A DNA stretch of 64,000 bases from Pelagibacteraceae bacterium AG-390-L03 (GTDB lineage: Bacteria > Pseudomonadota > Alphaproteobacteria > Pelagibacterales > Pelagibacteraceae), in NCBI GenBank assembly GCA_003279685.1, contig QCHA01000002.1, positions 16,303 through 80,302 on the forward strand, read 5' to 3'. The notes under the pieces were generated by a model that worked only from the letters and a program-made list of their open reading frames with translations, made no database searches and was not told the origin of the DNA. A program made the position numbers and the translations under genes. The stretch's first letter is position 1. Each line of letters opens with the position of its first letter. Below are positions 16,004 through 39,305 of this stretch, one piece after another.

Positions 16004-17206
16004 ATGAAAATAACTAAAATGATCTATGTTATTATGTTTTCTTCACTTCTTGGAATATTTAGCACAGCAAATTCAGGTGAATTGTGCACAGAGTGTCTAA
16101 AAAAAGTTCCACAAGAAATGAGAGACTATGTTTATAACATGGACTTTATGGATAAAGACCAACCTTTAGGACCTGCGGTAATGAAAGGATGGAAAAGTCC
16201 TAGAAAACCACCGTGGACTATTGGTTACGCTAGTACGTATGCTGGAAACACTTGGAGAAAAGGTGCAATGGAAAGATTAATGGAAGTTGTATATCCTAAG
16301 TGGAAAGCACTAGGAATGGTTGATGAGATTGTAATTACTCAATCAAACTTAGATGACTCATTACAAATTCAGCAAATGAGACAAATGATAGATGGGGGTA
16401 AAGTTGATGCAATTATTATATGTTGCTCTAATATAACTGCTCTTAACACTACTATTAAGTATGGTTGGGAAAAAGGTATACCTACATTATCATTTACAGG
16501 CTTTACAACATCTCCGTATTCAATCAACACATCTGTTAATTACAGATTAGTTGGTTACTATGTAGGTGCATGGATGGCTGAGCTTATTGGAGAAAAAGGT
16601 AATGTTATAGTTATCGAAGGAATACCAGGTTATTCTGCTTCAGACCAACAAAACAAAGGGGTACTAGCTGCGTTGTCAGAATTCCCTGATGTAAACGTTG
16701 TTGGACAACTAGCACATAACTGGACTTCGCAAGTTGCTCAAAAAGAACTGTCACAATGGTTATCAACAAATACAAAAAAAGTTGATGGTATTGCTGTTCA
16801 ATCTTCAGGAGAAACTGGAACTTTGCAGGCCCTACTTCAGTCTGGACTTGATCCAATTCCACCAATTGCATTAGGAGGAGAACTTGGTGCATTATGTTAT
16901 TGGAGACAAAACCCAGGATATATTGATGAAGCAATATATGCATGGCCTCCGGGAGATGAAGTTGAGCTAGGTATGGATGTAATGATTAGAACTTTGCAAG
17001 GTCAAAGTCCTATGATTCAGTCTATATTAGTTGGTCCAGCTACGAAAAATTTCGATGAAATCAGTGAAATCTTAAATGAAGATTGTGATCGAAATTCTAC
17101 TGGTTGGGATAATCCTGGAATGGACAAATGGGCTCCTAAAGAATACGTAGAAGCATTCTTTGAGAATCCAAGCGATCCTACAAAATACGATCCAAAATCT
17201 CACTAA
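16004..17206 (+). CDS. Ribose/sugar-type (Peripla_BP_4-like) ABC substrate-binding protein
   Basis: Signal peptide, AAGGAGGGG RBS, WTIGYASTYAGNTWR, GKVDAIII, GNVIVIEGIPG. Confidence 0.8.
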   Translation: MKITKMIYVIMFSSLLGIFSTANSGELCTECLKKVPQEMRDYVYNMDFMDKDQPLGPAVMKGWKSPRKPPWTIGYASTYAGNTWRKGAMERLMEVVYPKWKALGMVDEIVITQSNLDDSLQIQQMRQMIDGGKVDAIIICCSNITALNTTIKYGWEKGIPTLSFTGFTTSPYSINTSVNYRLVGYYVGAWMAELIGEKGNVIVIEGIPGYSASDQQNKGVLAALSEFPDVNVVGQLAHNWTSQVAQKELSQWLSTNTKKVDGIAVQSSGETGTLQALLQSGLDPIPPIALGGELGALCYWRQNPGYIDEAIYAWPPGDEVELGMDVMIRTLQGQSPMIQSILVGPATKNFDEISEILNEDCDRNSTGWDNPGMDKWAPKEYVEAFFENPSDPTKYDPKSH

Positions 17207-17221
17207 TACTTATAACTAAGT

Positions 17222-18967
17222 ATGAGTGCTGAAAAAAATATAGAAGACAACACCTCTAAAGAGGTGTTGTCTGAGAAGTCAAAAACTGTCCAAGGTGATA
17301 TTTATGTCCAAGATGTTCACAAATATTTTGGTGTGACCAAAGCCTTGAACGGAGTAAATTTCAATGCAAATTTTGGTGAAATTCATGCAATTGTTGGAGG
17401 AAATGGCTGTGGCAAAAGCACATTGGCAAAAACAATGTCTGGAGTTTTGCCAGTAGATAAAGGTAAAGTTTCAATACTTGGTCAAACTCCTACTTCCCCT
17501 GTAATGGCGAGAAACATGGGAATTGCAACAGTTTTTCAAGAAGTAATGATAGCTGAAGAGTCATCAGTAGTAGACAACTTATTTGTTGGCTCAGATGATT
17601 TTTGGTACAAAAATTTAACCCAAAGAGAAAAAGTGCTTAAAGCTCAAGAAATTATGGAAGATCTTGTTGGTGAATACGTTGATCCATATACGCAGGCATT
17701 TAATTTATCACTTCCCATAAAAGCATGGATAACAATTGCTAGAGCTTTCTTGAGAGATAATACAAAAGTATTAATTCTAGATGAGTCATCAGCTGCTCTT
17801 GATTTTGATTCCACTGAAAGATTATTTAAAAAAATGAGAGAGTTACGTGACAAAGGAGTTGCAATTTTCATTGTTACTCACCGAATTGCTGAGCTAGTAC
17901 GAATAAGTGATAAAGCAACTGTTATGAGAGATGGTAAAGATGTAGGGGTGTTAGAAAAAAAAGATCTTAATGAAAAAAATTTAATAGGCTTAATGACTGG
18001 TAGAGAAGAAACAGGAGAAAAATCCACTTCAATAGCTATGCAAACTAAAACAGATAAAGTTGTAATGAGAGCAGAAAATTTAATTGTTTGGCCAGACAGC
18101 AAACCTATCAATTTTGAAGTCAAAAAAGGAGAAATTGTAGGCATAACAGGTCTTGATGGTAATGGACAAGATGACTTTGTTAAGATTTTAGCAGGTGTAC
18201 AAGAATCTCATGGTGGGACTATTGAAATTTTAGACTCAAATGAAAAATTTTTAAAATATAATTCTTTAGAAAGTGCAAAAGAAAATGGAATATCATTTGT
18301 TTCTGGTGATCGAAAAAAAGAAGGAATACTTCCTAACTTAAGTATTTATGAAAATTTAGTTGTACCTCTTTACAAAAAAACTAGCAGAGCAGGATTTTTA
18401 GGTTTTATTAACTGGATGGAACTGAATGGAATTTATGATTGGGAAGTAGAAAGATTAAATATTAAAACTGGCCCAAGTGATAATCTAATTGGTTCACTAA
18501 GTGGAGGAAATCAACAAAAAGTAATGATAGCAAGATCATTTGCACAGCATCCAAAAGTTCTTATTTTAAATGATCCAGCAAGAGGCATAGATATAAGCAC
18601 TAAAAGAGACCTGTATGTTCATTTAAGAAAATATGTTGAAGAAGGTAACACAGTTGTTTTTTTATCAAGTGAACTAGAAGAATTTATTGGGCTATGTCCA
18701 AAAGTTATAGTTTTTAGAAATGGGACAATATTTGATATTTTTGAAAATGATAAAATTAATGCTGATACTTTACTTGAAGGAATGTTTGGTCAAACCGCTG
18801 GGGTTGGTGAAACAACTATTTCAGCTAAACCTAATGTTTCAGCAATAATAAAAAATAAAGCTGAAAATAAAACCGAACCTGAAGGAAGAAAGATTGTAAA
18901 AATAGTAAATTTTGATGATGAAAATAACAATAAGAATAATAATAAAATAAAAGTTAAAACTTTTTGA
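17222..18967 (+). CDS. CUT2 sugar ABC ATP-binding protein (two ABC domains) with a low-complexity C-terminal tail
   Basis: GGNGCGKS, LILDESS, LSGGNQQK, LNDPARGID; about 55 extra C-terminal residues. Confidence 0.88.
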   Translation: MSAEKNIEDNTSKEVLSEKSKTVQGDIYVQDVHKYFGVTKALNGVNFNANFGEIHAIVGGNGCGKSTLAKTMSGVLPVDKGKVSILGQTPTSPVMARNMGIATVFQEVMIAEESSVVDNLFVGSDDFWYKNLTQREKVLKAQEIMEDLVGEYVDPYTQAFNLSLPIKAWITIARAFLRDNTKVLILDESSAALDFDSTERLFKKMRELRDKGVAIFIVTHRIAELVRISDKATVMRDGKDVGVLEKKDLNEKNLIGLMTGREETGEKSTSIAMQTKTDKVVMRAENLIVWPDSKPINFEVKKGEIVGITGLDGNGQDDFVKILAGVQESHGGTIEILDSNEKFLKYNSLESAKENGISFVSGDRKKEGILPNLSIYENLVVPLYKKTSRAGFLGFINWMELNGIYDWEVERLNIKTGPSDNLIGSLSGGNQQKVMIARSFAQHPKVLILNDPARGIDISTKRDLYVHLRKYVEEGNTVVFLSSELEEFIGLCPKVIVFRNGTIFDIFENDKINADTLLEGMFGQTAGVGETTISAKPNVSAIIKNKAENKTEPEGRKIVKIVNFDDENNNKNNNKIKVKTF

Positions 18968-19476
18968 TGAAAACAGAGAATAAACATAAATATTATAATG
19001 ATGAAGATGAAATAAATTTTGAAAAATTAAATAATTTTAGAAAATTTAATTCTAACCTTAAAAATAATATTCAATCAAATAATCATATTATTAAGTATGC
19101 TAATTCTGATAAAAATTATTTTAATAATATTTTAAAGATTGATCAAAAAGCCACTAAATATAATGAAAATGATAAGGAAAAAGAGATAAACTATTATAGC
19201 CTATCAGACTTTCAAAAATTTGATCAACTAGATAGTTTTTCTGAACATAATAATACAGAAAAAATACAAAAAAAAATTAATCTCAAATCAAACTATTCAT
19301 CTAAAGACCATGAAGAGTTTAATAAAATAATTCCAAAAAGAAATTCAGATCAAGAAAAAAATAACGAACTAAACGAAAAAATTAGAGTAATTGATTACAG
19401 TAAAATAAATGAGAATGAAAAAAAACTTAAAAATAAATTTGGGATTGATAAAATAAAAGTAGTTTATTTTGATTAA
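18964..19476 (+). CDS. Orphan N/K/E-rich protein with four ~33-aa-periodic repeats
   Basis: Start overlaps the ATPase stop (ATGA); Y-x3-D-x3-F-x2-[IL] at aa 11, 45, 78, 111; fills the gap inside a tight operon. Confidence 0.7.
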   Translation: MMKTENKHKYYNDEDEINFEKLNNFRKFNSNLKNNIQSNNHIIKYANSDKNYFNNILKIDQKATKYNENDKEKEINYYSLSDFQKFDQLDSFSEHNNTEKIQKKINLKSNYSSKDHEEFNKIIPKRNSDQEKNNELNEKIRVIDYSKINENEKKLKNKFGIDKIKVVYFD

Positions 19477-19481
19477 AAAAA

Positions 19482-21806
19482 ATGGAAATAATTGAAAAGT
19501 TAAAAACTTATAGATCTAGTGTAGATACTTCTTCAAATAAGTATCTAATGGTGCCCATTTTTATTTTTTTTGCTTTATTAATTTTTGCTTTAATTAGAAG
19601 TCCAATACTTATCTCACAATCAGGCATAGGAAGTGCGATAATGCTTACTGCTCCTTTAATTTTAACCACTTACGCTCTAACATTTATAGCTATGGCCGGA
19701 AGAGGTGGGGTTGATTTGTCTATTGGTCCTTTCATGGGTTTTATAAATGTAAGTAGTATTCAACTATATGCTGCTGGATATTTACAAACTCCAATTGGCT
19801 GGTTTGTTTATGCAATAGCAATGGGATTAATTTGGCAGCTTTTCTATGCTTTAATAGTTTGTTTTGTAAGAGTTTCACCAATAATTGTATCTCTAGCTGG
19901 ATATTTAGCATTTGCTGGAATAAATATCGTAATTTTACCAAGACCAGGTGGAATAGCTCCGGACTGGCTGCTTCCATGGGGAGAAGGATTTACAATTCTA
20001 AACCCTATATTTCTTCTAATGATATTGGCGACAATATTATTTTATATAATTACTCATACGGCTTTTTGGGGTCATCTAAAATTAATGGGTTCAGATGAAC
20101 GTGCAGCTTTTACAAGTGGTGTAAAAATTCACCTTGTAAGAATAGTTGCTCATATGATAGCAGGAATTTTTGCAGCTCTTTCTGCAATATGTTTTACGGC
20201 TCTTGTTGGATCTGGAGACCCACTACAAGGAACTAAATACACATTACTAGGTATTACTGCATTAGTTCTAGGTGGCGCAAGTTTGGCTGGTGGGCGTGGA
20301 GGTGCGTTTGGAGCAATTTTAGGTGCATTAAACTTATACCTTATAAATTATATCTTGGTTACTTTTAGATTTGAAAGACTTCAAAGTTTTGTTTCGGACT
20401 TATCTTATGGAGCAGTTTTGGTTATAGCATTATTAGTTAGTCTTATTCTTCCTTATGTCACAAGAGTAACAAAGGGTTTATCGGTAATGGTTTTTTTCAT
20501 TTTAATGGCATTTGCAGGATTATTTGTGGTATTACATCAAGTGTATGATCAACCAATTATTATAGAGAAAGTAGTTGAAACTGATGAAAAATCTCAAAAT
20601 GATGTAAGAGGATCAAAAGTAAGAAAAGTAGATTCAACAGGAAATATTATAGTTGAGGACTCTGAAGCTGGGGCAACAACAGGAACTGGTACTGCTAAAG
20701 GTGGCTCGTTGGCAGGTCATGGCGTAGTTCAACTCACTGAAACACCAGGAACTATAGTGTTTTATGTAATTTTAGGAATAGCATTCGTTGCTTTGTTGCT
20801 TTACCTATTGTCAGCCCATAGAAATCCATCCACGATTTCTTTTGTAATTATCGTAGTCATAATGGCAGCTGGTTTAATTTTTGACCCCGACGATAAAGAA
20901 AAAGACATATTAAAAGATACAGAAAAAATAACTTTAAACTCTAAACAAGTAAGTAGTATTGAAACTTCTGCTCCTCAATACTTTAGCTTGGAAAAAATAA
21001 ACTACTTCCCAAATGTTCTTGAGAGTTCTCTTATTTCTGGAACTACTTATAGTATTATTTATTTTGCTGGAATTGTTTTGTTGGCATCTCTAATTGTAAT
21101 ATCAATGCTTCCTCAATTTAGTCCACGTACTAAATCTACAGCGCTTTTATTTTTTCTAGCAGCTATATCTTTAATTGTTTTAAAAGGTGTTTCATATAAT
21201 AATTTAGTTGAAAGCACTGATAGTAGCTTTTTTGGCATTCAGGGATATGGGGTAATACTAGTTGTTTTACTTTTATTTGTTATAACGGCTCCATTTGTTC
21301 ATTCAAAAATAAAAAACTTAACTAATGTATATATATTTGGATTTGGTATTCTTGCAATAATTTGTACTTATTTTATTGGTGGTAATACTTTTGTTCTAAA
21401 TGATCCATCTTTTTATCAACCTAAAATAATAAGTGAATTAAATATCGGAGATCTTTCTCAAATTAAATACGAAGGGACAAAAAGATTTTTTTATGAAACT
21501 GCAACTTCAGGATATTCTCAATTTGCCTTTAGTATTCTAGCGGTATTTTTAGTCCAATATTTTTTATTCCTTAATATGGGTGAGAAAGCAAATTATAAAA
21601 GATTTGCTCCATATATTTACATAGTAACTATTGCTGTAGCACTTTGGGCTTCAATATTTTATTCTGTAGGATATTCATTATATAAAATTCTTGCAGTATT
21701 AGTAATTGGAATACCTATTACACCTTTGGTTTGGCAATTTATGTCTATCTATAAAGAAAAAAATGCACGTGATAAACAATTAAGTCAATGGGAGGAAATA
21801 AAGTAG
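19482..21806 (+). CDS. CUT2 ABC permease with a ~430-aa multi-TM C-terminal extension
   Basis: GGVDLSIG, HLKLMGSDERAAFTSG, VLGGASLAGGRG in the first ~340 aa, then several additional hydrophobic hairpins. Confidence 0.8.
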   Translation: MEIIEKLKTYRSSVDTSSNKYLMVPIFIFFALLIFALIRSPILISQSGIGSAIMLTAPLILTTYALTFIAMAGRGGVDLSIGPFMGFINVSSIQLYAAGYLQTPIGWFVYAIAMGLIWQLFYALIVCFVRVSPIIVSLAGYLAFAGINIVILPRPGGIAPDWLLPWGEGFTILNPIFLLMILATILFYIITHTAFWGHLKLMGSDERAAFTSGVKIHLVRIVAHMIAGIFAALSAICFTALVGSGDPLQGTKYTLLGITALVLGGASLAGGRGGAFGAILGALNLYLINYILVTFRFERLQSFVSDLSYGAVLVIALLVSLILPYVTRVTKGLSVMVFFILMAFAGLFVVLHQVYDQPIIIEKVVETDEKSQNDVRGSKVRKVDSTGNIIVEDSEAGATTGTGTAKGGSLAGHGVVQLTETPGTIVFYVILGIAFVALLLYLLSAHRNPSTISFVIIVVIMAAGLIFDPDDKEKDILKDTEKITLNSKQVSSIETSAPQYFSLEKINYFPNVLESSLISGTTYSIIYFAGIVLLASLIVISMLPQFSPRTKSTALLFFLAAISLIVLKGVSYNNLVESTDSSFFGIQGYGVILVVLLLFVITAPFVHSKIKNLTNVYIFGFGILAIICTYFIGGNTFVLNDPSFYQPKIISELNIGDLSQIKYEGTKRFFYETATSGYSQFAFSILAVFLVQYFLFLNMGEKANYKRFAPYIYIVTIAVALWASIFYSVGYSLYKILAVLVIGIPITPLVWQFMSIYKEKNARDKQLSQWEEIK

Positions 21807-23207
21807 ATGAAAAAATCAGCATTTCTTTTTTTTAAAGGACTAGGATTATTATTTGCAATTCTTTGTGGAATAGGAACTGCTTTTCTTGGTTGGTATGATG
21901 GCGCAGATTGGATGAATATTGCTACCTACTCTATTGCTGTAACTGGATTAATATTGTGGGGATGGTACCATTTTTCTGTAAGATGGATTAATGAAGATTT
22001 AAAACAAAATATCTTCACTAAATTTCCTAAAGAAGAAATTATAAAAGACGAAGAAGATGAAGAAAATTTTTTCTTCAAAAATATTAGAGAAAATAAATGG
22101 AAAACAATTGCTTTCCTTGGGGTAATTCTAATCTTTATTTTTGTATCTTTTGTAGCAGATGATTTCTTTTCAGGAAGAACCCTAGTTTCATTTTTGATCT
22201 TTTTAGTATTTGTGATTTTTATGGGTATTATCAGCAGATACATAAAAGGTTCAAAAAGTGTTTTTGTAGGGATCTCTGTGTTGATTGGATTGTTTATTAT
22301 TGGATCTCTAACCATACCTGGTTTCTTAACAACCATGAACATGAAATCAATGTTGGTTTTCGCATCATTTTTAGGACTAGCTACTATTGGTCAGACTTTT
22401 GTTGCACTTTTAGGGGGTTTAGATCTTTCAATTCCATTTGTTATTGGCTCTATGAATGTTGGTTTAATGTCGTTAATTTCAAAAGGAGTTCCACCCTGGT
22501 TAGCATGCATAGTAATATTATTGCTAGGAGCTTTAATTGGATTTGTTAATGGAACTCTGAGTTTTAGGCTTCAGGGACAAGCATTAATTTTAACCTTAGG
22601 TGTCGGATTTTTTGTTAAAGGAGGAGTTCAAATTTTAGTCTCTATGGGAACTTTCTCAGCAGGTACAGTTTTTGGTGTAGTACCAGATTGGATGCAAAAT
22701 TTGGCCTCTATGGGAGGAAAAACTATTGGTCTTCCAATACCTCCTGTGATCATTATTTGGATAGTTGCAAGTATATTAGTTATTGTTGCACTTAGATTAA
22801 CAAAATGGGGAAGGCATTTATATGCTTTAGGTGGAAGTAGATTGTCATCATCAAGACTTTCTATTTCTGAAAGAGGATACTGGGTTGGTGCTTATGTTAT
22901 TAGTGGATTTTTCTCAGCTTTAACTGGAATTCTACTTCTTGGTTGGAGTGGTGGAGGATATGTAGGTGCTGGAGATATTTATTTATTCACAACTATAGCT
23001 GCAGTGGTTATTGGTGGAACTTCATTATTAGGAGGTTCTGGAGGTTATGGGTTAAGTGTTATTGGAGTATTTATATTACAAATAATAACAACTGTATTAA
23101 TTGGATGGGGTTTAAGTTGGGAAGCACAACAATTTATTTTAGGATTACTTATTATTCCAATGGTTGCCCTATACGCAAGATCCCCACATATAAGAAGCCA
23201 GATATAA
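21807..23207 (+). CDS. CUT2 ABC permease with a ~150-aa N-terminal TM extension
   Basis: GGLDLSIP, WGRHLYALGGS, VVIGGTSLLGGSG; extra N-terminal helices and acidic linker. Confidence 0.82.
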   Translation: MKKSAFLFFKGLGLLFAILCGIGTAFLGWYDGADWMNIATYSIAVTGLILWGWYHFSVRWINEDLKQNIFTKFPKEEIIKDEEDEENFFFKNIRENKWKTIAFLGVILIFIFVSFVADDFFSGRTLVSFLIFLVFVIFMGIISRYIKGSKSVFVGISVLIGLFIIGSLTIPGFLTTMNMKSMLVFASFLGLATIGQTFVALLGGLDLSIPFVIGSMNVGLMSLISKGVPPWLACIVILLLGALIGFVNGTLSFRLQGQALILTLGVGFFVKGGVQILVSMGTFSAGTVFGVVPDWMQNLASMGGKTIGLPIPPVIIIWIVASILVIVALRLTKWGRHLYALGGSRLSSSRLSISERGYWVGAYVISGFFSALTGILLLGWSGGGYVGAGDIYLFTTIAAVVIGGTSLLGGSGGYGLSVIGVFILQIITTVLIGWGLSWEAQQFILGLLIIPMVALYARSPHIRSQI

Positions 23208-23219
23208 AGGAGAAGATTT

Positions 23220-23939
23220 ATGATAGAATTAAATTGCGATATGGGTGAAAGTTTTGGGATCTATAAAGCGGGTAATGATGAAGAGATAATGCCATTAATA
23301 GATATAGCAAATGTTGCCTGTGGGTTTCATGCTTCTGATCCTAATCATATGAGAAAAACTGTGGCACTTGCAAAAAAACATGGGGTAAAAGTTGGTGCTC
23401 ACCCTTCTTTTTCTGATCTGCAGGGATTTGGAAGAAGAGAAATAAAAATGCCAAGACAAGATATAAAAAATATGGTTATGTATCAGGTAGGTGCTTTAAA
23501 ATCATTTTTAGATGAACAAGATATGCCTTTGAACCATATCAAACCTCATGGATCATTATATGTTATGGCTGCGAAAGATGAAAATATGGCTAACGCAATT
23601 GCAGATGCTGTTGAAACTTTTAATGTGAGTATTTTTGGAATGGCAAATACTTGTCATGAAAAGGTTTATAAAGATGAAAGAGGTTTAAATTTTATAGCAG
23701 AATTTTATGCTGACCTAGATTATGATAAAGAAGGAAACCTAGTTGTAGCTAAAGGAAAAAATGCTAACTACGATAGTAAAATTGCAGCCAAACGTGTCAT
23801 GCGTGCATTAAAAGAAAAAAAAGTTACCAATACTATTGGTAAAGATATAAATGTTGGTTGTGATACAATTTGCGTTCATTCAGATACACCTAATGCAGTT
23901 GAAATAATTACAGGTATTAAATCAGCTCTTAGTAAATGA
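23220..23939 (+). CDS. pxpA: LamB/YcsF family protein (5-oxoprolinase subunit A-like)
   Basis: LNCDMGESFG, ANVACGFHASDP, GAHPS, HIKPHGSLY, TICVHSDTP. Confidence 0.92.
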   Translation: MIELNCDMGESFGIYKAGNDEEIMPLIDIANVACGFHASDPNHMRKTVALAKKHGVKVGAHPSFSDLQGFGRREIKMPRQDIKNMVMYQVGALKSFLDEQDMPLNHIKPHGSLYVMAAKDENMANAIADAVETFNVSIFGMANTCHEKVYKDERGLNFIAEFYADLDYDKEGNLVVAKGKNANYDSKIAAKRVMRALKEKKVTNTIGKDINVGCDTICVHSDTPNAVEIITGIKSALSK

Positions 23940-26389
23940 AAAGAATTTTAATAGCTAACAGAGGTGAAATAGCTTGTAGAATTATTAAAAGCTGTAAAAA
24001 ACTAGGTATACAGTCAATTGCTGTATATTCAGATATAGACAAAAACAGCAAACACGTTAGAGAAGCTGACGAGTCAATCCACATAGGGGGGTCAAAAGCA
24101 CAAGAAAGTTACCTTTTCGCAGAAAAAATCATTGAGGTTGCTAAAAAACTAAATGCTGATGCTATTCATCCAGGATATGGATTTATGGCCGAAAATGCTG
24201 AATTTGCCCAGAATGTAATAGACTCAGGGATAATTTGGATAGGCCCAAAACCAAGCACTATCATATCAATGGGTAATAAAGATGTAGCAAGAGATTTGGC
24301 TATAAAAAATAACCTTCCTATTTGCCCAGGGTTAAAAGATGAAGATTTAAAAAAAGATGATCTAGAAAATAAATGTAATGAAATTGGTTATCCAATTTTA
24401 ATAAAGGCAAGTGCTGGTGGTGGTGGAATTGGAATGCGAATAGCAAACAATTATGAGGAATTAATTCAATCAATTGAAAAAACTAAAAATTTAGCAAAAA
24501 AAGCATTTGGTAATAGCGATATTTTTTTAGAAAAATTTATTTCAAATGCAAGGCATATAGAAATTCAAGTTTTTGGTCTTGGTGAAAGAAAAGCTTTGCA
24601 TTTCTACGAAAGAGATTGCTCAATACAAAGACGCTTTCAAAAAATTATAGAAGAAAGTCCCGCTCCTGAGATTAAAGACTCAATAATTAATGAGATGGCA
24701 GAAAGTGCAGTAAATTTTGTTACAAATCAAAAATATGAAGGAGCTGGTACAATAGAATTTATATACGACATTGATAATAAAAAATTTTATTTTTTAGAAA
24801 TGAATACTAGAATTCAAGTAGAGCACCCTGTTACAGAGATGATCACAAATTCTGATTTAGTTTCAATGCAAATCCAATTTGCATTAAACCTAGATCTACA
24901 ATCTATAGAACAAAATAAAATTAATAAATCAGGACATGCTATTGAATGTAGATTATATGCTGAAGACCCAGCTAAAAACTTTCTTCCTTCTCCAGGTAAA
25001 ATTACTAAATTAAATCTTCCTAATACTGGTTTTGTAGATATTAGACTTGATATAGGTGTAGATGAAGGAGATGAGATATCTTTTTATTATGATCCAATGA
25101 TTGCAAAAATTATTTCAAAAAGTGAAAATAGAATAGAAAGTATAAATAATATGATTCATTATTTAAGTGAATTAAAAATAGAAGGAATTAATACAAATAA
25201 ATCTTTTTTAATTTCAGTTTTAAAAAATGAGTCTTTTGAAAAAGCAACTTATAATACTAAATTTATAGAAAATAATTTATCTTTATTTACAAAAGAATCA
25301 GAAACTTTAAAAAAAAATATAAGTAAAACTATTAATGAAGAAAATATTGTTCAAAAATATACTGATAAAGATGTTGAGGCTTTTAAAAAAATCACAGCAC
25401 AATCTCCTAATAAAAAACACTCAGACCACTACACTGAAAATGATTTCAAAGCATTTAAGAATATTTTAAATAAAAAAAATGATAATCAAAAAAAAGGTTC
25501 TATTAAAAATATAATAGGAAAAGTATATGAAGAACCATTATTTAAACCAGGAGGTGACAAATATATGGTCATTGAATTTGGTAATCTTATGGATCTAGAA
25601 ATTAACTTTACAGCACAAAACTTAGCTAAAGCTATTCTTGATAATAAAATCAAAGGTATTTATGAAACTGCTCCATGTTTTGCTTCGATGCTTATTCATT
25701 ATAATCCTGATGAAATAAAATTTAATGATTTAAAAAATGAGATGAAGTCACTTATTAAGTCATTAGGTCCAACTGATGATATTGAGATTAATAGTAGAAT
25801 TTTCTCATTTCCCACTGTTTATTTAGATAAATGGACAAAAGAATGTATTGAAGATTATTCAAGCAAAATTGTAGAAAAAACTCCTGATCCTGATTTTATT
25901 GTAGAGCTAAATAAACTTGAAAATACTGAACAATTTGTAAGGGTTCATTCTGGAACTGAATATTGGGTTTCGGCACTAGGTTTTTGGCCAGGTCTTCCAT
26001 TTATGATGCCTTTAGACCCTAGATGTAAATTAACTGCACCAAAATATAATCCACCAAGAACCTGGACCCCAAAAGGTGCCGTAGGAATGGGTGGATCTTC
26101 AACTTCAATATATCCTGATAGATTGCCTGGTGGTTATCAAATTTTTGGAATAATACCTGTTCCTATTTGGGATACTCAGAAAAGTTTTTCTGTATTTGAA
26201 GAAAGTATCTGTCTTTTTAAACCTGGTGACAGAGTAAAATTTGTACCCACAAGCTACGAAGAATTTGATCATGTTTCGAATAAGGTAAAGGACAAATCCT
26301 ATGATTATAATATTATTGACTATCAAAAATTTTCAGTAAAAAATTATAAAAATTGGTTAACAACAATTGATAAAACAAAAAGATTTTAA
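23936..26389 (+). CDS. Biotin carboxylase fused to a carboxyltransferase C/D (PxpB/AHS1-like) domain
   Basis: ANRGEIACR, HPGYGF, GGGGIGM, ERDCSIQRR, EMNTRIQVEHPVTE, YYDPMIAK; ~70-aa linker; then GFWPGLPF, PKYNPPRTWTP, PGGYQIFG. Confidence 0.88.
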   Translation: MKRILIANRGEIACRIIKSCKKLGIQSIAVYSDIDKNSKHVREADESIHIGGSKAQESYLFAEKIIEVAKKLNADAIHPGYGFMAENAEFAQNVIDSGIIWIGPKPSTIISMGNKDVARDLAIKNNLPICPGLKDEDLKKDDLENKCNEIGYPILIKASAGGGGIGMRIANNYEELIQSIEKTKNLAKKAFGNSDIFLEKFISNARHIEIQVFGLGERKALHFYERDCSIQRRFQKIIEESPAPEIKDSIINEMAESAVNFVTNQKYEGAGTIEFIYDIDNKKFYFLEMNTRIQVEHPVTEMITNSDLVSMQIQFALNLDLQSIEQNKINKSGHAIECRLYAEDPAKNFLPSPGKITKLNLPNTGFVDIRLDIGVDEGDEISFYYDPMIAKIISKSENRIESINNMIHYLSELKIEGINTNKSFLISVLKNESFEKATYNTKFIENNLSLFTKESETLKKNISKTINEENIVQKYTDKDVEAFKKITAQSPNKKHSDHYTENDFKAFKNILNKKNDNQKKGSIKNIIGKVYEEPLFKPGGDKYMVIEFGNLMDLEINFTAQNLAKAILDNKIKGIYETAPCFASMLIHYNPDEIKFNDLKNEMKSLIKSLGPTDDIEINSRIFSFPTVYLDKWTKECIEDYSSKIVEKTPDPDFIVELNKLENTEQFVRVHSGTEYWVSALGFWPGLPFMMPLDPRCKLTAPKYNPPRTWTPKGAVGMGGSSTSIYPDRLPGGYQIFGIIPVPIWDTQKSFSVFEESICLFKPGDRVKFVPTSYEEFDHVSNKVKDKSYDYNIIDYQKFSVKNYKNWLTTIDKTKRF

Positions 26390-26394
26390 CTTTT

Positions 26395-27519
26395 ATGGTT
26401 CAGGTAATTAAAAAAGGTTTAGAAACATCAGTCCAAGATTATCCTGGAAGAATTGGAACTTTAAATCAAGGATTTCCAGCCTCAGGTCCAATGGATAGTT
26501 GGTCTTTTAGACTTGCAAATATATTGGTTGGAAATAAGCCTGGTGACGCAGCACTAGAGTGTCAATTTATGGGACCAACTCTTAAATTTATTGATGATAG
26601 AACAATAGCTATTACAGGTGCAGACATGTCTCCAAAAATAGATGGTAAAAGTGTTCCTTTATGGGAGAGTATTGAAGTTAAAGCAAATCAAGTTTTAGAA
26701 TTAGAATTTGCCACAATAGGTGCAAGATCATATATTGCTTTTGCTGGAGGAATTAATAGTGAACCTTGGCTTGGATCGAAATCTACATTTCATAAAGCTG
26801 GGGTAGGCGGAATTGATGGTAAAGCTATTGAAAATAATCAAATTCTGCCACTAGGAAACAATAAAAAAATTCAGTTTAGAAAAATAAAAAAAAGTTCAAT
26901 ACCCGAAATCTCTAAAGATAAAAATTGGTCTATAGAAGTTGTTTTAGGTCCCAACGATGATTGGATAGATGACAAAGGTCATGAGATTTTTTTTAATTCT
27001 AAATGGAAACTTCAAGCAAAAAGTGATCGGACAGGGTATAGATTAGATGGACCTAAACTATCTTTCACTGATAAGGCTACAAACAAAAGCCTTGAAAATG
27101 GTTCGGAACCTTCAAATATTATTGACCAGGGCTATCCTGCAGGAGCAATTAATCTTGCAGGTCAAACCCCAATTATTCTTGTTAATGATGGACCAAGCAT
27201 GGGTGGTTTTATTAACCCGTATACTGTGCCATCAGCAACTTTTTGGAAATTAGGACAAGCTAAACCAGGAGATATTCTCAATTTTATAGAAGTTTCAGTT
27301 GAAAAAGCTCAAACATTAAGAGCTGAACAGTCAATCATTTGTAGCGAAGAAAGCCTTATATCTTTTAATAAGAATGAAACTATCAAAAATGAAAAAAACA
27401 AACAATTAGACCCAATAAAGATAATAGATTTTGATAAAAATAAGACGGAGGAGAAAAAAAGAGTAAAATTGATGGAAAAAAAAGGCATGAAAAATATGAA
27501 AATTCGGTTTTTTAATTAA
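26395..27519 (+). CDS. pxpC: Carboxyltransferase A/B (PxpC/AHS2-like) subunit with a charged C-terminal tail
   Basis: VQDYPGR, SGPMD, GARSYIAFAGG, SDRTGYRL, GQTPIIL, GGF..PYTV. Confidence 0.85.
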   Translation: MVQVIKKGLETSVQDYPGRIGTLNQGFPASGPMDSWSFRLANILVGNKPGDAALECQFMGPTLKFIDDRTIAITGADMSPKIDGKSVPLWESIEVKANQVLELEFATIGARSYIAFAGGINSEPWLGSKSTFHKAGVGGIDGKAIENNQILPLGNNKKIQFRKIKKSSIPEISKDKNWSIEVVLGPNDDWIDDKGHEIFFNSKWKLQAKSDRTGYRLDGPKLSFTDKATNKSLENGSEPSNIIDQGYPAGAINLAGQTPIILVNDGPSMGGFINPYTVPSATFWKLGQAKPGDILNFIEVSVEKAQTLRAEQSIICSEESLISFNKNETIKNEKNKQLDPIKIIDFDKNKTEEKKRVKLMEKKGMKNMKIRFFN

Positions 27520-27549
27520 TTATTAAATATGAAAGGAATATTTTAGATA

Positions 27550-27768
27550 ATGACAACTGAGGTAAAAACAACAGTTCCGGGTAATATATGGAAAGTACTA
27601 GTTAAAGTAGGAGATATTGTTAAACAAAATGATGACCTTTTCATTATGGAGGTAATGAAAACAGAGGTACATCACAACTCGCCTATTGATGGAAAAGTTA
27701 TACAAGTAAATATTCAAAATGACCAAGAAGCAGTTGAGCCTGGTACAGTTGCGATTATCATTGAATAA
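27550..27768 (+). CDS. Stand-alone biotin carboxyl carrier protein
   Basis: 72 aa; PG.IWKVLVKVGD and EVMKT (biotinyl-Lys in MK), SPIDG. Confidence 0.85.
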   Translation: MTTEVKTTVPGNIWKVLVKVGDIVKQNDDLFIMEVMKTEVHHNSPIDGKVIQVNIQNDQEAVEPGTVAIIIE

Positions 27769-27771
27769 CAT

Positions 27772-27981
27772 ATGAAATCTAAAAAAAAATTTATTACTAA
27801 ATATTTAGATACTATAATTGAACTATCAAATGAAACTGGGATTTCAAAAAAAGAAGTAAGAACAATCCTAGATATAACATTATCTAATCAAAATCCTGAG
27901 TTTGTTAATTTTGAACTAATAAAAACTGAAATAAAAACATTCATTACAATTAATATTTTTTCGCTAGTGTGTAAATTATAG
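27772..27981 (+). CDS. Small hypothetical protein
   Basis: 69 aa, ATG 3 nt after the BCCP stop; no family recognised. Confidence 0.5.
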   Translation: MKSKKKFITKYLDTIIELSNETGISKKEVRTILDITLSNQNPEFVNFELIKTEIKTFITINIFSLVCKL

Positions 27982-28008: not shown

Positions 28009-28845
28009 TTAATCGTAATAAAACATTGGAGCTTTTTTCCAATCTAACCATGTAACAGGGTCATGTCCCCAAACTACTTTAGCATTATAATCTTTGGCAA
28101 CTTTTCTTAATTTTTTAACAGAGTCAGCCGCATCTGAAGCAGAAGCAACAAGTCCAGGCAGACATTTATCACACCAATGATCTCCTGTATAACATGCGTC
28201 TCCAGTAAATAACATATGTCCAGTTTTTGGTAAATTTACAAGAACCGATTGATGACCAGGAGTATGTCCAGGAGTAAATATTATTTTAATAACACCATCT
28301 CCAAAGACATCATAAAAATCTGTTTTTCTTCCCTGTAAAAATTTCCATCTTATATTTGGTTTATCAAAATCTGCTCTTACATAAGCTGGTTGTGAAAACC
28401 AGTCTGGATTGAATGCATAATCGTATTCTACTCTTTGTGTAATATGTGTTGCATTAGGAAAGTGACCAATTGCTCCTGAATGATCAAGATGTAAGTGAGT
28501 TTGAATAACATATTTAACATCCTCTGGGTTTGTGTTTACAGATTTAACTACTTCTTTGCACCACTCTGAAGCTTTCATCACAGGATCATAAGCCTCAACA
28601 ACATTTCCCCAATGTTTATGTTTGTCTAGAGCTGCCTCAATTGGCATTCCTCCATCAATAATAACATCTCCTTCAGGATGTTTAATTAAAAACCAAGGTA
28701 CAGGAATTTCATAAGCTTCTTCACCTTGATTCATCTTTATGAATTTCAATTTAGTTTTTATAGAACCAGTTTGAAACATATATAGTTTAATTCCACTATT
28801 AAACTTTGTTGTTTTTTCAAAAAAGTCATCAGAAATATTATTCAT
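28009..28845 (-). CDS. attM: AttM/AiiB-type lactonase (metallo-beta-lactamase fold)
   Basis: HLHLDH, TPGHTPGH, GDACY, GHD; also KMNQG..YEIPVP, PDWF, DFDKP and KKAP features recalled from AttM/BlcC. Confidence 0.85.
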   Translation of the reverse strand: MNNISDDFFEKTTKFNSGIKLYMFQTGSIKTKLKFIKMNQGEEAYEIPVPWFLIKHPEGDVIIDGGMPIEAALDKHKHWGNVVEAYDPVMKASEWCKEVVKSVNTNPEDVKYVIQTHLHLDHSGAIGHFPNATHITQRVEYDYAFNPDWFSQPAYVRADFDKPNIRWKFLQGRKTDFYDVFGDGVIKIIFTPGHTPGHQSVLVNLPKTGHMLFTGDACYTGDHWCDKCLPGLVASASDAADSVKKLRKVAKDYNAKVVWGHDPVTWLDWKKAPMFYYD

Positions 28846-28853
28846 ACTTTATT

Positions 28854-30020: not shown

Positions 30021-30031
30021 ACCCCTAATTC

Positions 30032-32098: not shown

Positions 32099-32132
32099 AT
32101 GACTTGGCCATATCGTAGATCCTTTTGTTAGA

Positions 32133-32498
32133 TTAAGTGCAGCGTCTAGGTGCTGATTCACCTTTTTCTTTTTTAATTCTTTCAGCTTCTTCTTGGGCTT
32201 CTTTAATCGTTGAGTAAGCCTTATCTTCAAATATTATAAATGGTTTAGCTCTATCAGCATTCAATTGAGCAACACACCATTCTTTGTCAGGTTTAGTGCA
32301 CATCACCATATACGCACCAGGTATAGGTCCATATTTTCTATTATTTAATGTAAAAAGGCTTTTTGCCAGTTCATTCAATTTATCTTCATCCAAATTCCCT
32401 AGAGCATTTTTTTCCAAATTATTTAATGGAGTTTTATTGTCTGAACCTAAAATACTTTTTCCACCTGTTCCTTCAGGTCTAGTAAATTGATTGCTCAT
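32133..32498 (-). CDS. Second dimethylformamidase small-subunit-like protein (partial homolog)
   Basis: YMVMCTKPDKEWCVAQLNADRAKPFIIFEDKAYSTIKEA aligns by eye with KYVTVCKKDFEDYRIGIVTGVRGDPVEILEESFSSEEA of the 34878 protein. Confidence 0.55.
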   Translation of the reverse strand: MSNQFTRPEGTGGKSILGSDNKTPLNNLEKNALGNLDEDKLNELAKSLFTLNNRKYGPIPGAYMVMCTKPDKEWCVAQLNADRAKPFIIFEDKAYSTIKEAQEEAERIKKEKGESAPRRCT

Positions 32499-34855: not shown

Positions 34856-34877
34856 TTTATATGCCTTTTAATTTTGA

Positions 34878-36609: not shown

Positions 36610-38586
36610 TTATTTAGAACTTTTAGGTCCTTTAGTTGGATCATTATCAAAATTCATATGATAATCTTTTTTCGGATTTTCATAATCGCCTAAAATATTT
36701 CTAATATTACTTATTTCACCTGGTGCCATTCCAATTTCTTTAAGTAAACTATCTAAGAAAGGTTGATGAGCTCTGTAACGTAATGCAGAACTAACTACAT
36801 TGTCTGCTAAATTACCGCTTCTTGCAGATCCACCTGTACCATCAGATGCTTCTCCACCGCCTCCTCCAGTGCTGGATGTTCCGCTAAAGCCTGGCAAACC
36901 ATTAACATCAACAATTTTAATATCTCCAATGTTAGCCATTGGTTTAACACTTTCTCTAATGATTGACTCAATCTTATCAGCAAGTTTTAAACGTAATGCA
37001 CTTCTTCTACTTGCATCACTTCTAAGATTTTCAGCAGAGTTTAATGCTTCTTTACCTGCAGCATCTATCTCATATCTTAATTTTGCAGCCATAGTTGCAT
37101 GTCTATCTTGCTCAGCTCTAGATGCAGCTGTTATTACATCTACTTTTTTAATCCCTTGTGCTTTTTCAACATATCTAGCTGAATTAGCTTTTTCTTCTGC
37201 TTCTATAGCTCTAGCTCTAGAATTTTCTTCTTCAGCTTTTGATTTTAAAACCTGTTTCGACTTATTAATCACTTCAAGATTTTTTTGATGCTCTTCAATA
37301 CTTAATCTTTTAGCTTTTTCTATATCAAGAAGTCTCACTACTCTTTCAGATTCAATTCTATGTGAGTCTATATTTTTTTGTTGTTCAATCTTGGCATTTT
37401 TAACTTGTTGTTCTGAAACAATTTGAGCTTCTTCAGCCTCCTTTTGTCTTTCAGATTGTTCTTTTATAATAGCAGCTTTTTCTTGAGCTCGTTTGATATC
37501 AACTTGTCTTTGCTTTTCAAGTCTTGCATATTCACTTTCTTTATCAAGATTTAAAATTTTAACTTCTGTTTCTAAATCTTTTTGTCTTATTTCAAACGCT
37601 GAATTTTTCTCTAATTCATTTTGCTCTTTTCTTCTTTTTTCGATTTCTTCAATAAGTCTTGTTTCTGTTAATTTTCTTTCAACCTCGATAACTTGATTTT
37701 GTGAAATTTTTGCAACTTCAATTTGTTCTTGACTTCTTATTTCAGCTTCTTCTGCTTCTCTTTCTTTCTCAGCTTTTTCTTTTATTGTCTCTGTTTTTTC
37801 TTTAGCTCTTTGAATAGCTATTTCTCTTTCTTGTTGATACTTAGAAAACTCCTCATTTTTCTTAATTTCTAATTCTTTTTGAACTGTCTCTAAATTTTTA
37901 TTTTCAATTGAAATTTTTGTATCTTGAGTAATATCATTTCTCTTTTTCTTTCTCTCTTCAATTTGCTCAGTCAATTGAGTTAAACCCTGAGAGTCAAAAG
38001 TATTAGCAGGATTAAACATTTCAATCGGTGCTTGATCAAGAGAGATGATAGAAACTGTTTCAAGTGCCAATCCAGTATGCCCTATTGATTCATTTGCAAT
38101 GTTTGCAACTTGTTTAACAAATTGACCTCTATTTTCTTGTATTTCATCTAAGGTCATTTTTGCTGCAACTTCTCCAAGGGCGTCTGCAAAACGACCAGCA
38201 ACAACCTCTTTTAAATGTTCTGGATCAAGAGTTCTGTTACCTAAAGTTTGTGCTGCAGTTGATACTGCTTTAGCCTCTGGTGGAACTTTCGTAAAAAATT
38301 CTGTAACAAGTTCTGCTCTCATTCTATCTTTTGTAATTAGAGATTTGTCACCTGCTCTCTTTATATTTAGACTAAGTGTACGCATTCCTACTTGTGTAAT
38401 ATTATGAATTATAGGTAAGACAAACGCACCACCAGATATAACAACTTTTTCCCCTAACATACCTGTACGTACAAACGAAACTTCTTTTGATGATCGTCTG
38501 TATAACCAATGTAATAAGTAAACTATAATCGCAATTGCAAGTGCGACTAAAATTATACCTGCTATTATGTCTGCTCCTTTAGTCAT
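36610..38586 (-). CDS. Flotillin (SPFH domain, long E/K/Q coiled coil, Flot C-terminal domain)
   Basis: N-terminal TM, FVRTG, LITKDRMRA, NTFDSQGLT, long coiled coil, SVKPMANIGDIKIVDV. Confidence 0.92.
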   Translation of the reverse strand: MTKGADIIAGIILVALAIAIIVYLLHWLYRRSSKEVSFVRTGMLGEKVVISGGAFVLPIIHNITQVGMRTLSLNIKRAGDKSLITKDRMRAELVTEFFTKVPPEAKAVSTAAQTLGNRTLDPEHLKEVVAGRFADALGEVAAKMTLDEIQENRGQFVKQVANIANESIGHTGLALETVSIISLDQAPIEMFNPANTFDSQGLTQLTEQIEERKKKRNDITQDTKISIENKNLETVQKELEIKKNEEFSKYQQEREIAIQRAKEKTETIKEKAEKEREAEEAEIRSQEQIEVAKISQNQVIEVERKLTETRLIEEIEKRRKEQNELEKNSAFEIRQKDLETEVKILNLDKESEYARLEKQRQVDIKRAQEKAAIIKEQSERQKEAEEAQIVSEQQVKNAKIEQQKNIDSHRIESERVVRLLDIEKAKRLSIEEHQKNLEVINKSKQVLKSKAEEENSRARAIEAEEKANSARYVEKAQGIKKVDVITAASRAEQDRHATMAAKLRYEIDAAGKEALNSAENLRSDASRRSALRLKLADKIESIIRESVKPMANIGDIKIVDVNGLPGFSGTSSTGGGGGEASDGTGGSARSGNLADNVVSSALRYRAHQPFLDSLLKEIGMAPGEISNIRNILGDYENPKKDYHMNFDNDPTKGPKSSK

Positions 38587-38600: not shown

Positions 38601-39305
38601 TTAATTCTGATTACCTTTCTTTGTATCTTCTAAAGCTGCGCTATAAATTATCATTCCAAAAATGATTTTATTTAATACGTCAGCTAAATTATAAATTATG
38701 TTTAAACTGTTAATATTTGCTCCACCAGCAAGGTGCTCTATAAAGTATCCAATATGATATATTGAAAAACCTATTGTAATTATTAGTCTATTTGCAAAAA
38801 ATGCCATCTGAACTCGCTCATTATTGCAAGATGCATTTGCTCGTCCAGCATCTCCCATATAAAGCTCTCCAATGATATAAAGCCATCCAACAATACCTAC
38901 TAAGAACCCAAGAGTTACACTCATGTAACCATAAGCCCCTAAAAGTTGTGCAATAACCCAAACTAACGTCCCAACTAGCAATCTCCAGAACATTCCACGC
39001 TTAATATCTGTAACTGACTTAAGCATCACATAGAAAGTGAGTATTGTAAGTGGAAATGTTAACAGCCAATCAATATATCTTAGCGCTGTTGGTGCTTGAC
39101 CATTCAAAACCCACAAATTTTTTGCATAGAAGTAATGAATCGATGACATTAATGCTATAACACCAACTAAATTCATTACTGTTCCCCATTTTGGAGACAG
39201 TCGTCCTCTTTCAAGAAAGAAAAATATTGCTGCACCTATCATCGCTACGGATATTAACCAAAAAGATCCGCCTACTACGTCTTGTGGAAGCAATAATTTG
39301 TTCAT
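38601..39305 (-). CDS. Proteorhodopsin-family paralog with DTT motif (flotillin-associated rhodopsin)
   Basis: Seven TMs, SFW, HY, RYIDWLLTFPLTILT (D79/T83/T90), NLADVLNK (K213); adjacent to flotillin. Confidence 0.92.
   Translation of the reverse strand: MNKLLLPQDVVGGSFWLISVAMIGAAIFFFLERGRLSPKWGTVMNLVGVIALMSSIHYFYAKNLWVLNGQAPTALRYIDWLLTFPLTILTFYVMLKSVTDIKRGMFWRLLVGTLVWVIAQLLGAYGYMSVTLGFLVGIVGWLYIIGELYMGDAGRANASCNNERVQMAFFANRLIITIGFSIYHIGYFIEHLAGGANINSLNIIYNLADVLNKIIFGMIIYSAALEDTKKGNQN

Follow-up and report, generated by a model that had tools for sequence, protein, structure and literature searches.

Several described systems resemble, each in part, the arrangement reported here. The cargo peptides of encapsulins and BMCs are short, conserved terminal peptides that serve as an address label on unrelated enzymes of one operon, to which they are joined by a flexible linker. 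NRPS/PKS docking domains, some of which match a short linear motif with a beta-hairpin partner (PMC9113145), are also short terminal elements on flexible linkers. They sit at the ends of megasynthase subunits, where they pair consecutive modules, and let subunits that are encoded separately associate specifically and with moderate affinity, with strand augmentation among the modes used. In amyloid signaling (HET-s/NWD2, BASS), one short strand-forming motif lies at the termini of proteins from neighboring genes and sometimes comes as two pseudo-repeats; in BASS, the C-terminus of a Bell-domain effector has this motif in common with the N-terminus of the NLR encoded next to it. Finally, the importer nucleotide-binding subunits MalK, MetN, and ModC bear an extra C-terminal element, in their case a folded domain of at least 100 aa that binds ligands or regulators.

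The window analyzed here is a stretch of 64,000 nucleotides from SAG AG-390-L03 (Pelagibacteraceae; contig QCHA01000002.1, positions 16,303 to 80,302, forward strand), and coordinates below count from its first letter. It contains a FAR (flotillin-associated rhodopsin) gene cluster, a type of locus found widely in certain bacteria that rank among the most abundant of the ocean. The cluster has been described in SAR11, HIMB59, and Pseudothioglobus (Haro-Moreno et al. 2023, PMC10308929), where its function is called unknown. Our locus is this published cluster. Specifically, the rhodopsin and flotillin genes are neighbors that share a strand and are 14 nt apart (16 nt in PMC10308929), and the transporter, biotin-dependent carboxylase, PxpA, DMFase, and SCP2 reported there are all present in the window. 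It is an accessory island, with the operon found in three of 61 related genomes and flotillin, as a single copy, in two of 61 (the same genomes). Moreover, the SCP2-like protein p129 and a conserved 69-aa ORF show full-length identity to AG-390-L03 entries in an excerpt of Table S2 of PMC10308929, which labels the latter 'hypothetical', and permease 2 is identical over the stretch shown in that excerpt. The terms C-terminal, ABC, and hypothetical are absent from the main text of the same paper, so that the shared tags, the helical motif B, and the adaptor are apparently unmentioned there, and the tags appear to be undescribed so far. The features of the locus are as follows.

16004..17206, plus strand: periplasmic substrate-binding protein, untagged (Pfam Peripla_BP_4, E=2.8e-38)
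17222..18967, plus strand: ABC ATPase with two fused nucleotide-binding domains (Pfam ABC_tran, two stretches) and a C-terminal extension of ~65 aa ending in the tag
18896-18964, plus strand: ATPase tag, VKIVNF (18896-18913), 11-aa spacer, IKVKTF and stop (18947-18964)
18964..19476, plus strand: orphan adaptor, 169-170 aa, four motif-B copies and the tag (probable start ATG at 18967)
18994-19029, 19096-19131, 19195-19230, 19294-19329, plus strand: motif-B cores of the orphan (core identity 0.98)
19381-19473, plus strand: orphan tag, IRVIDY (19381-19398), 18-aa spacer, IKVVYFD and stop (19453-19473)
19482..21806, plus strand: permease 1, 774 aa, BPD_transp_2 core and an extra membrane domain of ~450 aa (Pfam covers aa 53-316 only)
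21807..23207, plus strand: permease 2, 466 aa, with an N-terminal extension (Pfam covers aa 179-450)
23220..23939, plus strand: PxpA (LamB/YcsF) lactamase-type subunit, untagged in SAR11 (Pfam LamB_YcsF, E=8e-92)
23936..26389, plus strand: biotin carboxylase fused to CT_C_D (PxpB-like), with a low-complexity linker between them (Pfam)
25358-25393 and 25430-25465, plus strand: two motif-B copies in that linker (motif regex)
26395..27519, plus strand: CT_A_B (PxpC-like) subunit (Pfam CT_A_B, aa 26-297) with a C-terminal linker and tag of ~55 aa
27415-27516, plus strand: PxpC tag, IKIIDF (27415-27432), 21-aa spacer, MKIRFFN and stop (27496-27516)
27550..27768, plus strand: biotin carboxyl carrier protein, 72 aa (Pfam Biotin_lipoyl)
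27772..27981, plus strand: conserved small ORF, 69 aa, kept in SAR11 and in a second order
36610..38586, minus strand: flotillin of the FAR cluster (ORF; co-occurs with the tagged ATPase)
36904-36921, minus strand: probable barrel strand of flotillin, IKIVDV, tag-like by sequence likeness
38601..39305, minus strand: FArhodopsin, separated by 14 nt from the flotillin gene downstream of it

The preliminary description had proposed that the ATPase, the orphan, and the PxpC-like subunit share a paired, strand-like C-terminal tag outside their normal domains. Their ends, re-read in the sequence, are exactly as claimed, and the tails lie outside both ABC_tran stretches of the ATPase and outside CT_A_B in PxpC. 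The pairing itself is real and far beyond chance, but the two 'strands' proved to be two copies of a single repeat unit of seven residues, strand-like by its sequence, h-K-h-h-[D/E/N]-[F/Y]-[D/E/N]. Usually, two such units are placed at the extreme C-terminus on a disordered linker of 20-60 residues. Every tail adjoins the start of the next gene.

The estimate of chance covered every ORF of 80 aa or more in the 1.35 Mb genome, 1609 in total. The pattern [IV][KR][IV][IV][DN][FY] had four matches among these ORFs and the terminal motif seven, three of which were in each case the tails, and the scan for further carriers that had been suggested returned only these three proteins with both motifs in the last 60 aa. 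Likewise, a profile built from 25 tails found exactly these three carriers per SAR11 genome tested and nothing else at E<0.05. Among 1.84 billion representative proteins the profile had 71 matches at E<=1e-3, almost all of which end at the protein C-terminus. It had no credible match in the PDB. A homolog search with the ATPase tail alone yielded only two proteins, because this tail is too variable for shared 5-mers.

An alignment of orthologs, the check proposed in the preliminary description, shows that the tags are kept while the tails around them vary: across 27-33 SAR11 orthologs, mean pairwise identity was 0.68-0.96 in the strands versus 0.33-0.51 in the preceding linkers. In the ATPase tag, identity was 0.68 for the first strand, 0.96 for the second, and 0.37 for the intervening loop, and the PxpC tag was near-invariant across 120 metagenomic orthologs, again behind a variable linker. 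Moreover, at least two codons were used at nearly every conserved tag residue across orthologs, and relatives at 53-59% GC retain the peptide. Because the linkers drift, the codons vary, and the peptide persists at such GC contents, the tag is, on these comparative grounds, maintained by selection acting on the protein. That it might have no protein-level function, being AT-rich low-complexity drift or a nucleotide signal (ribosome-binding sites, translational coupling), would fit the composition of the host genome (29% GC, rich in K, N, and I) and the position of the tails against the next gene's start, but is scarcely credible given a motif unique in the proteome that is also kept in other gene orders. 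The varying synonymous codons and the peptide kept in the GC-richer relatives led us to reject ribosome binding or coupling as its origin.

The tag had been attributed to three proteins, which holds; it also extends, however, beyond SAR11 and beyond these three families. The importer ATPase was tagged in every lineage found, while the other carriers differed by lineage. In SAR11 these were PxpC and the orphan, and in a second alphaproteobacterial order, probably HIMB59, a separate biotin carboxylase. L129 and L133, of a GC-rich lineage, had the tag on an unrelated hydantoinase B subunit and on an orphan-like adaptor, and L128, L132, and L134 encoded at the orphan position a protein of 110-120 aa made of five tag units. 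The ATPase tail was kept in 27 SAR11 orthologs as well as in the second order, L128, L129, and L132-L134, and the tag is ancestral on the ATPase. PxpC itself is a clear CT_A_B member (288.5 bits against a gathering cut-off of 25), with its tail (aa 320-374) outside the domain, and its orthologs outside SAR11 have 322 aa and are without the tail. In every genome scanned the tag was locus-specific, and distant PxpC operons with ordinary transporters, used as a negative control, had none. The 10 kb examined around the L128 locus showed no enzyme with a tag, so that any tethering of enzymes would not be universal.

Two other readings of the tag are a degron and a membrane anchor. A shared degron, by which a membrane protease such as FtsH would recognize the tag and turn over importer, adaptor, and enzyme jointly, would suit a C-terminal tag exposed on a disordered linker, and SPFH proteins are known partners of FtsH. 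It is nevertheless highly unlikely, as the five-unit proteins and the ATPases with at least three internal copies are hard to square with it, and the tag is unlike known C-terminal degrons. Still fainter is the prospect of a membrane anchor, in which the tag would form an amphipathic cationic hairpin on anionic lipids and hold soluble proteins at the membrane. The SAR11 tails, with a net charge of +3 to +6 and alternating hydrophobic and lysine residues, have the appearance this calls for, but acidic flanks surround the unit in relatives at 53-59% GC, the net charge of the five-unit proteins ranges from -8 to +2, several ATPase tails are at -1, and the permeases already hold the ATPase at the membrane. 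With charge not conserved, the cationic anchor was rejected.

The tag also differs from each of the described systems. Unlike cargo peptides, it is also present on a transporter ATPase, and the candidate 'shell' would here be a flotillin cage. Neither an encapsulin shell gene, among the Pfam matches of the operon or of genes flanking it on metagenome contigs, nor BMC shell or BMC-domain genes in the loci were found, and AF2 predicts strands for the tag where BMC peptides are amphipathic alpha-helices of ~18 aa. In contrast to NRPS/PKS docking domains, the enzymes and families are entirely different (the tag is carried by an ABC ATPase, by subunits of a carboxylase or hydantoinase, and by small proteins predicted to be disordered), one tag is placed on several proteins and not in ordered head-to-tail pairs, and multivalent adaptor proteins are present. 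Amyloid signaling motifs are ~21 residues long, whereas the tag units have seven and are carried by metabolic and transport proteins; NB-ARC, NACHT, NLR, and Bell genes were absent from the locus. Compared with MalK, MetN, and ModC, our ATPase ends in a tail predicted to be disordered, the short linear motif of which also occurs on enzymes.

The gene for the substrate-binding protein heads the operon in all lineages. The ATPase that follows is of the CUT2/RbsA type, with two ABC_tran nucleotide-binding domains in one polypeptide and the tail outside both. In an AF2 model of the homologous ATPase of L073, both nucleotide-binding domains reached pLDDT 80-94, while the extension after the second (model residues 542-594) was predicted to be disordered (pLDDT 28-47). 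In L073, the ATPase also reads through naturally and in frame into the PxpB extension, for which Pfam at E<=10 gave no meaningful match, and AF2 of this read-through placed the tag with confidence neither on motif B nor on the nucleotide-binding domains. A tail predicted to be disordered and undocked on these domains fits a role between molecules. The second order and L128 both keep the extension of permease 1, which co-occurs with the tagged ATPase; permease 2 orthologs of other lineages have 463-473 aa (463 aa in G063). Two candidate receptors for the tag were rejected: a SAR11-specific insert of permease 1 (..VRKVDSTGNIIVED..), which is probably periplasmic by the positive-inside rule, and, as a universal partner, the 69-aa ORF, which is absent from L128 and L129 and for which Pfam at E<=10 gave no meaningful match.

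The orphan belonged to no Pfam family, with nothing meaningful even at E<=10, and had 432 homologs. It had been described as a scaffold, and its predicted structure bears out that look: the AF2 model (mean pLDDT 63, pTM 0.19) is disordered, with helices at the four motif-B sites and two strands in the tail. Motif B, a helical Y-x3-D-x3-F-x2-[IL], is present in the orphan (four copies), in the carboxylase linker, and at some enzyme N-termini; its regex had 15 matches in the proteome, of which four were in the orphan and two in the biotin carboxylase fusion. In the second order, motif B was found on a PxpB N-extension and on the N-terminus of a lactamase_B protein, with the tag on biotin carboxylase and ATPase, and the orphan's end (IKVVYFD and stop) is also that of the separate biotin carboxylase (GIKVVYFD and stop). 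Tag and motif B might be a cognate docking pair that joins the tagged ATPase, biotin carboxylase, and PxpC to PxpB, lactonase, and orphan as bearers of motif B, in the manner of the docking domains of megasynthases. Both are extras confined to the locus, their contact in the second order would join biotin carboxylase to its carboxyltransferase, and in SAR11 biotin carboxylase and PxpB are fused via the motif-B linker, and the leftover pieces match the orphan. We nonetheless regard the pair as quite unlikely, since lineages with five-unit proteins lack motif B within 10 kb and the AF2 models show no packing of tag on motif B, with confidence, in the orphan monomer or in the ATPase/PxpB-extension read-through.

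A shared targeting or assembly signal had also been suggested, and comparative genomics strongly upholds the core of this idea, a portable and conserved signal and no coincidence, although AlphaFold gave no docking within one chain. We favor, with a probability of about 55%, a reading in which the tails are a locus-specific, portable tag for assembly between molecules that would tether enzymes and adaptor to the importer. The analysis shows a tag that is specific, conserved, portable, linked to the locus, and predicted to be disordered and prone to form strands; binding, tethering, and the identity of the partner are what we infer. One special ABC importer, with enlarged permeases, has the tag on its ATPase without exception. 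In the proposed arrangement, the tag is also on the cytoplasmic ring-opening or carboxylating enzyme encoded with that importer, whichever enzyme this is, and on a small, disordered adaptor, the gene for which lies between those of ATPase and permease. The tags would pair as beta-strands between molecules, either mutually or with a common receptor, holding the enzyme complex and adaptor to the importer at the cytoplasmic face of the membrane, where imported substrate would at once meet the ATP-dependent enzyme. Motif B may be a second tag of the same network, and the assembly would probably be located in a flotillin microdomain of the FAR cluster.

Tagged ATPase and flotillin were found together in 33 of 35 positive genomes of one order, in two of three in SAR11, and in none of 104 negative genomes; co-occurrence of this kind could stem from simple co-inheritance of one genomic island. 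This linkage also bears on the alternative that the tag is a targeting peptide for the flotillin cage. Flotillin contributes one strand per subunit to a 44-strand barrel (10.1101/2024.05.09.593390). The tag would mimic this single strand of the parallel barrel at the cage apex and dock to flotillin, loading ATPase, enzymes, and adaptors into a flotillin-bounded membrane compartment. The FAR flotillin cage would then be a membrane-attached nanocompartment, and the tag a cargo address that packs ATPase, ATP-dependent enzymes for lactam opening or carboxylation, and multivalent adaptors with a retinal-less FArhodopsin, the cryo-EM structure of which has reportedly been solved with no retinal bound. 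To our knowledge, no targeting peptide for flotillin cages has been described.

We consider the flotillin address possible but unlikely. Apart from the near-perfect co-occurrence, it draws on tag-like flotillin strands in three lineages (IKIVDVNG in the window, IKVVDVNG in G063, IKILQVDG in L128), on the pattern [IV]K[IV][IV]D[FYVIL][DN], which in the proteome is confined to the PxpC tag and the flotillin strand, on the order permease 2, rhodopsin, flotillin, retained in L128, L129, and G063, and on the five-unit multivalent proteins, which would suit an oligomeric receptor. However, such a strand motif is typical of flotillins generally, so that the likeness may be convergent or trivial. The tail profile moreover failed to pick up flotillin, tag and flotillin strand showed no covariation across lineages, a closed barrel has no free edge, and co-inheritance of the island explains the linkage as well. 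In a metagenome scan with flotillin, all matches were close relatives from SAR11 (87-100% identity), and tagged proteins of new types were absent.

If flotillin were the receptor, the tag would be the first targeting peptide to be defined for an SPFH/flotillin assembly of any kind, and, should the cargo reading be true, the FAR cluster would gain a function. The tag units, whether as the seven-residue peptide or as the five-unit protein of 110-120 aa, could also serve as tethers in engineering. As a system, the tags offer a concrete and testable wiring diagram of importer ATPase, adaptor, enzyme, and the peptides that link them. If the tethering reading is true, we would have a rare bacterial example of an importer joined physically to the enzyme that uses up what it imports, an arrangement well suited to cells that live on nutrients at nanomolar levels.

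ORF and Pfam assignments placed the tailed proteins in a single operon on the + strand (window 16004-27981) of the AG-390-L03 genome, which has 1.35 Mb and 29% GC. The operon encodes a sugar-type importer together with a split biotin-dependent urea-carboxylase-like enzyme, and comprises the following genes:

Genes of the operon, window 16004-27981
+ strand, periplasmic binding protein (Peripla_BP_4)
+ strand, ABC ATPase, 581 aa, two fused nucleotide-binding domains
+ strand, orphan (putative adaptor encoded between the ATPase and permease 1), 169-170 aa, without Pfam family
+ strand, permease 1, 774 aa (BPD_transp_2), far above usual length
+ strand, permease 2, 466 aa (BPD_transp_2), far above usual length
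+ strand, PxpA (LamB/YcsF)
+ strand, biotin carboxylase (BC) fused to a CT_C_D (PxpB-like) domain, 817 aa
+ strand, PxpC-like protein, 374 aa (CT_A_B)
+ strand, biotin carrier protein, 72 aa
+ strand, 69-aa ORF, conserved

The three genes from PxpC to the 69-aa ORF share one reading frame (26395-27981), separated only by stop codons plus 1-9 codons. Permease 1 has a SAR11-specific insert, ..SKVRKVDSTGNIIVEDSEAGATTGTGTAKGGSLAGHG.., at aa ~360-405 (window ~20560-20700), between transmembrane segments of its extension and, by the positive-inside rule, probably on the periplasmic side. A second, ordinary PxpC paralogue (32% identical, ~320 aa) without the tail lies elsewhere in the same genome (C1:28048-28926), and such a tailless paralogue is also present in most genomes of the genus.

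The preliminary description held that the ATPase, the orphan and PxpC end in the same paired strand-like tag, and the three C-termini proved exact in sequence and coordinates. In the genome's complete set of 1609 ORFs (80 aa or longer), motif 1 had four matches and the terminal motif seven, three in each case being the tails; both motifs occurred near the C-terminus only in these same three proteins. When six SAR11 genomes were searched with a profile of 25 tails, each yielded exactly these three carriers and no other protein below E=0.05. A chance origin of the common tails is excluded.

Orthologue alignment also bore out the expectation that the tags are conserved inside variable tails. For each protein, 27-33 distinct orthologues from SAR11 were compared, and mean pairwise identity was 0.68-0.96 for the strands versus 0.33-0.51 for the linkers. 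A set of 120 PxpC orthologues from metagenomes, 82-99% identical, had nearly invariant C-terminal ends of ~35 residues, whereas the preceding linker varied freely. At least two codons were used across orthologues for almost every conserved tail residue, and relatives at 53-59% GC retained the peptide despite a quite different codon choice. Codon variation at conserved residues speaks against a DNA-level signal for ribosome binding or coupling; the alignments indicate that selection acts at the peptide level.

Across genomes, the tag proved to be a repeated unit that is portable between proteins. A PxpC alignment run against 185,579 species genomes yielded a gradient of loci. In every SAR11 locus (PxpC 69-99% identical) the operon was complete and the three tails were present, the orphan tail being kept where the orphan body was down to 28-58% identity. 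One SAR11 single-cell genome (L065) encoded a 365-aa PxpC that stops after ..KIMEKKE and is missing the second tag unit, reflecting either natural truncation or an assembly error. Small alphaproteobacterial genomes of a second group, which represent an order other than SAR11, probably HIMB59, had an orthologous importer. There, PxpC (322 aa) is tailless, the ATPase ends in ..NIQVVDF..KIKIKYF* and the separate BC has a 50-aa extension ending in ..IKIVETDK..GGIKVVYFD*. The tags were absent from more distant operons of this gradient, which had ordinary transporters. A genome assigned to the second order (G062, locus L059) had a SAR11-type operon with orphan, BC-PxpB fusion and tagged PxpC, the ATPase and orphan being on the opposite strand, suggesting that the cluster was transferred from one order to the other. 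The PxpA genes of five second-order loci (L074, L076, L079, L080, L087) encode a ~20-aa C-terminal extension ending in K-M-P-Y-I-[IV]-x-[DE]-(K-K)*, absent from SAR11 PxpA and possibly a third short motif at a protein terminus.

A search with the tail profile against 1.84 billion representative proteins returned 71 matches at E<=1e-3, nearly all ending at the protein C-terminus. These included fragments of SAR11 proteins, an ATPase fragment bearing at least three units, and orphan-like proteins that were not AT-rich (59% GC in L129, the sole contig measured) and had four helical motifs followed by ..IKIVDFDKE..NIKIRYFD*. Other matches were small proteins (109-123 aa) made up entirely of five units, [IVM]K[IV]xEF[DG], spaced 21-37 residues apart with the last at the very C-terminus. 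The same importer was present on every examined contig with these proteins (L128, L129, L132-L134). In L128, L132 and L134, the gene for the five-unit protein followed that for the tagged ATPase and preceded permease 1; in L129 and L133, the tagged ATPase was followed by the orphan-like adaptor, hydantoinase A and hydantoinase B, the last of which was itself tagged (..IKIVDFDKQQDEDNNRRKDMKIRYF*). This tagged hydantoinase B provides what we consider the strongest evidence for an address or assembly label: since an enzyme unrelated to PxpC is tagged when encoded with this importer, the tag would be such a label and not part of one enzyme. At L129 10691-14798, hydantoinase A/B (ATP-dependent lactamase type) replaces the biotin-dependent carboxylase beside the importer, with a LuxR-type regulator and a hybrid histidine kinase encoded upstream.

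The orphan contained four copies of a helical motif, Y-x3-D-x3-F-x2-[IL] (motif B), the core positions of which were invariant or nearly so across 63 sequences. Two further copies lay in the BC-PxpB linker, so that six of the 15 matches in the proteome were in these two regions. An AF2 model of the orphan (mean pLDDT 63, pTM 0.19) had short helices exactly at the four motif-B copies and placed two strands (E139-143 and E162-166) in the tail, describing what is probably a disordered adaptor. In the second order, the gene directly 3' of the ATPase gene encoded PxpB with a 140-aa N-terminal extension bearing two to three motif-B copies. Lactamase_B of a second-order genome (G063; L130 17903-18844), 313 aa long (its window counterpart has 278 aa), started with a motif-B copy, YKKSDLDQFDKI, that is almost the same as the most N-terminal motif B in the PxpB extension; motif B at this N-terminus suggests that it behaves as a second portable tag, an N-terminal one. 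Possibly, BC was tagged in the ancestor and PxpB was extended by motif B; in SAR11 the two would then have been fused through a motif-B linker. The orphan would then be leftover motif-B repeats plus the BC-type tail (IKVVYFD*), kept at the old position, and the PxpC tag a later gain.

Several partners of the tag were considered. In an AF2 model of a natural in-frame read-through of the ATPase and neighbouring PxpB extension (L073), both nucleotide-binding domains were well folded and the tail (pLDDT 28-47) docked neither to them nor to the adjacent motif B, which fits a role between molecules. Motif B was ruled out as universal receptor because lineages with the five-unit protein do not have it within 10 kb, and the 69-aa ORF was rejected as universal partner since L128 and L129 do not encode it. 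A cationic membrane anchor is unlikely given that the charge of the tag is not conserved. Flotillin is a serious candidate. The parallel barrel at the apex of the flotillin cage takes one strand from every subunit (10.1101/2024.05.09.593390). For the equivalent segment, the window flotillin has IKIVDVNG, that of G063 IKVVDVNG and that of L128 IKILQVDG, and proteome-wide a 7-mer pattern matched only the PxpC tag and this strand. However, the tail profile missed flotillin, no covariation was seen between tag and flotillin strand, and their likeness may be generic to flotillins. Tag-to-tag pairing is also possible, and would cover all lineages without a separate receptor.

Downstream of the operon lies the following block:

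Block downstream of the operon
28009-39305, - strand, lactamase_B, Fe-ADH, SSF symporter, DMFase subunits, abhydrolase, 129-aa SCP2-like protein, flotillin, flotillin-associated rhodopsin (FArhodopsin)

The window is the published flotillin-associated rhodopsin (FAR) cluster, reported also from HIMB59 (PMC10308929). The 129-aa protein, 69-aa ORF and permease 2 match sequences shown for SAG AG-390-L03 in Table S2 of that paper, and its main text apparently does not mention the tags. Later work showed that FArhodopsin does not bind retinal. Rhodopsin and flotillin followed permease 2 on the same strand in L128, L129 and G063; in the window, the block with both sits 9-11 kb downstream and inverted. 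The operon or ATPase was detected in three of 61 SAR11 relatives and flotillin in two of the same genomes (both in two); among 81 second-order genomes, each was detected in 34 and both in 33. The 129-aa SCP2-like neighbour of flotillin (36206-36595, - strand) is unusually conserved, with 80% identity between the two orders, and is still clearly alignable in L128 (53% GC).

The common tails are real and well beyond chance, and the shared assembly signal proposed for them in the preliminary description is strongly supported by genome comparison. The tags and adaptor appear to be undescribed so far, inside a known but unexplained cluster, and the tag would represent a variant of address or docking peptides.
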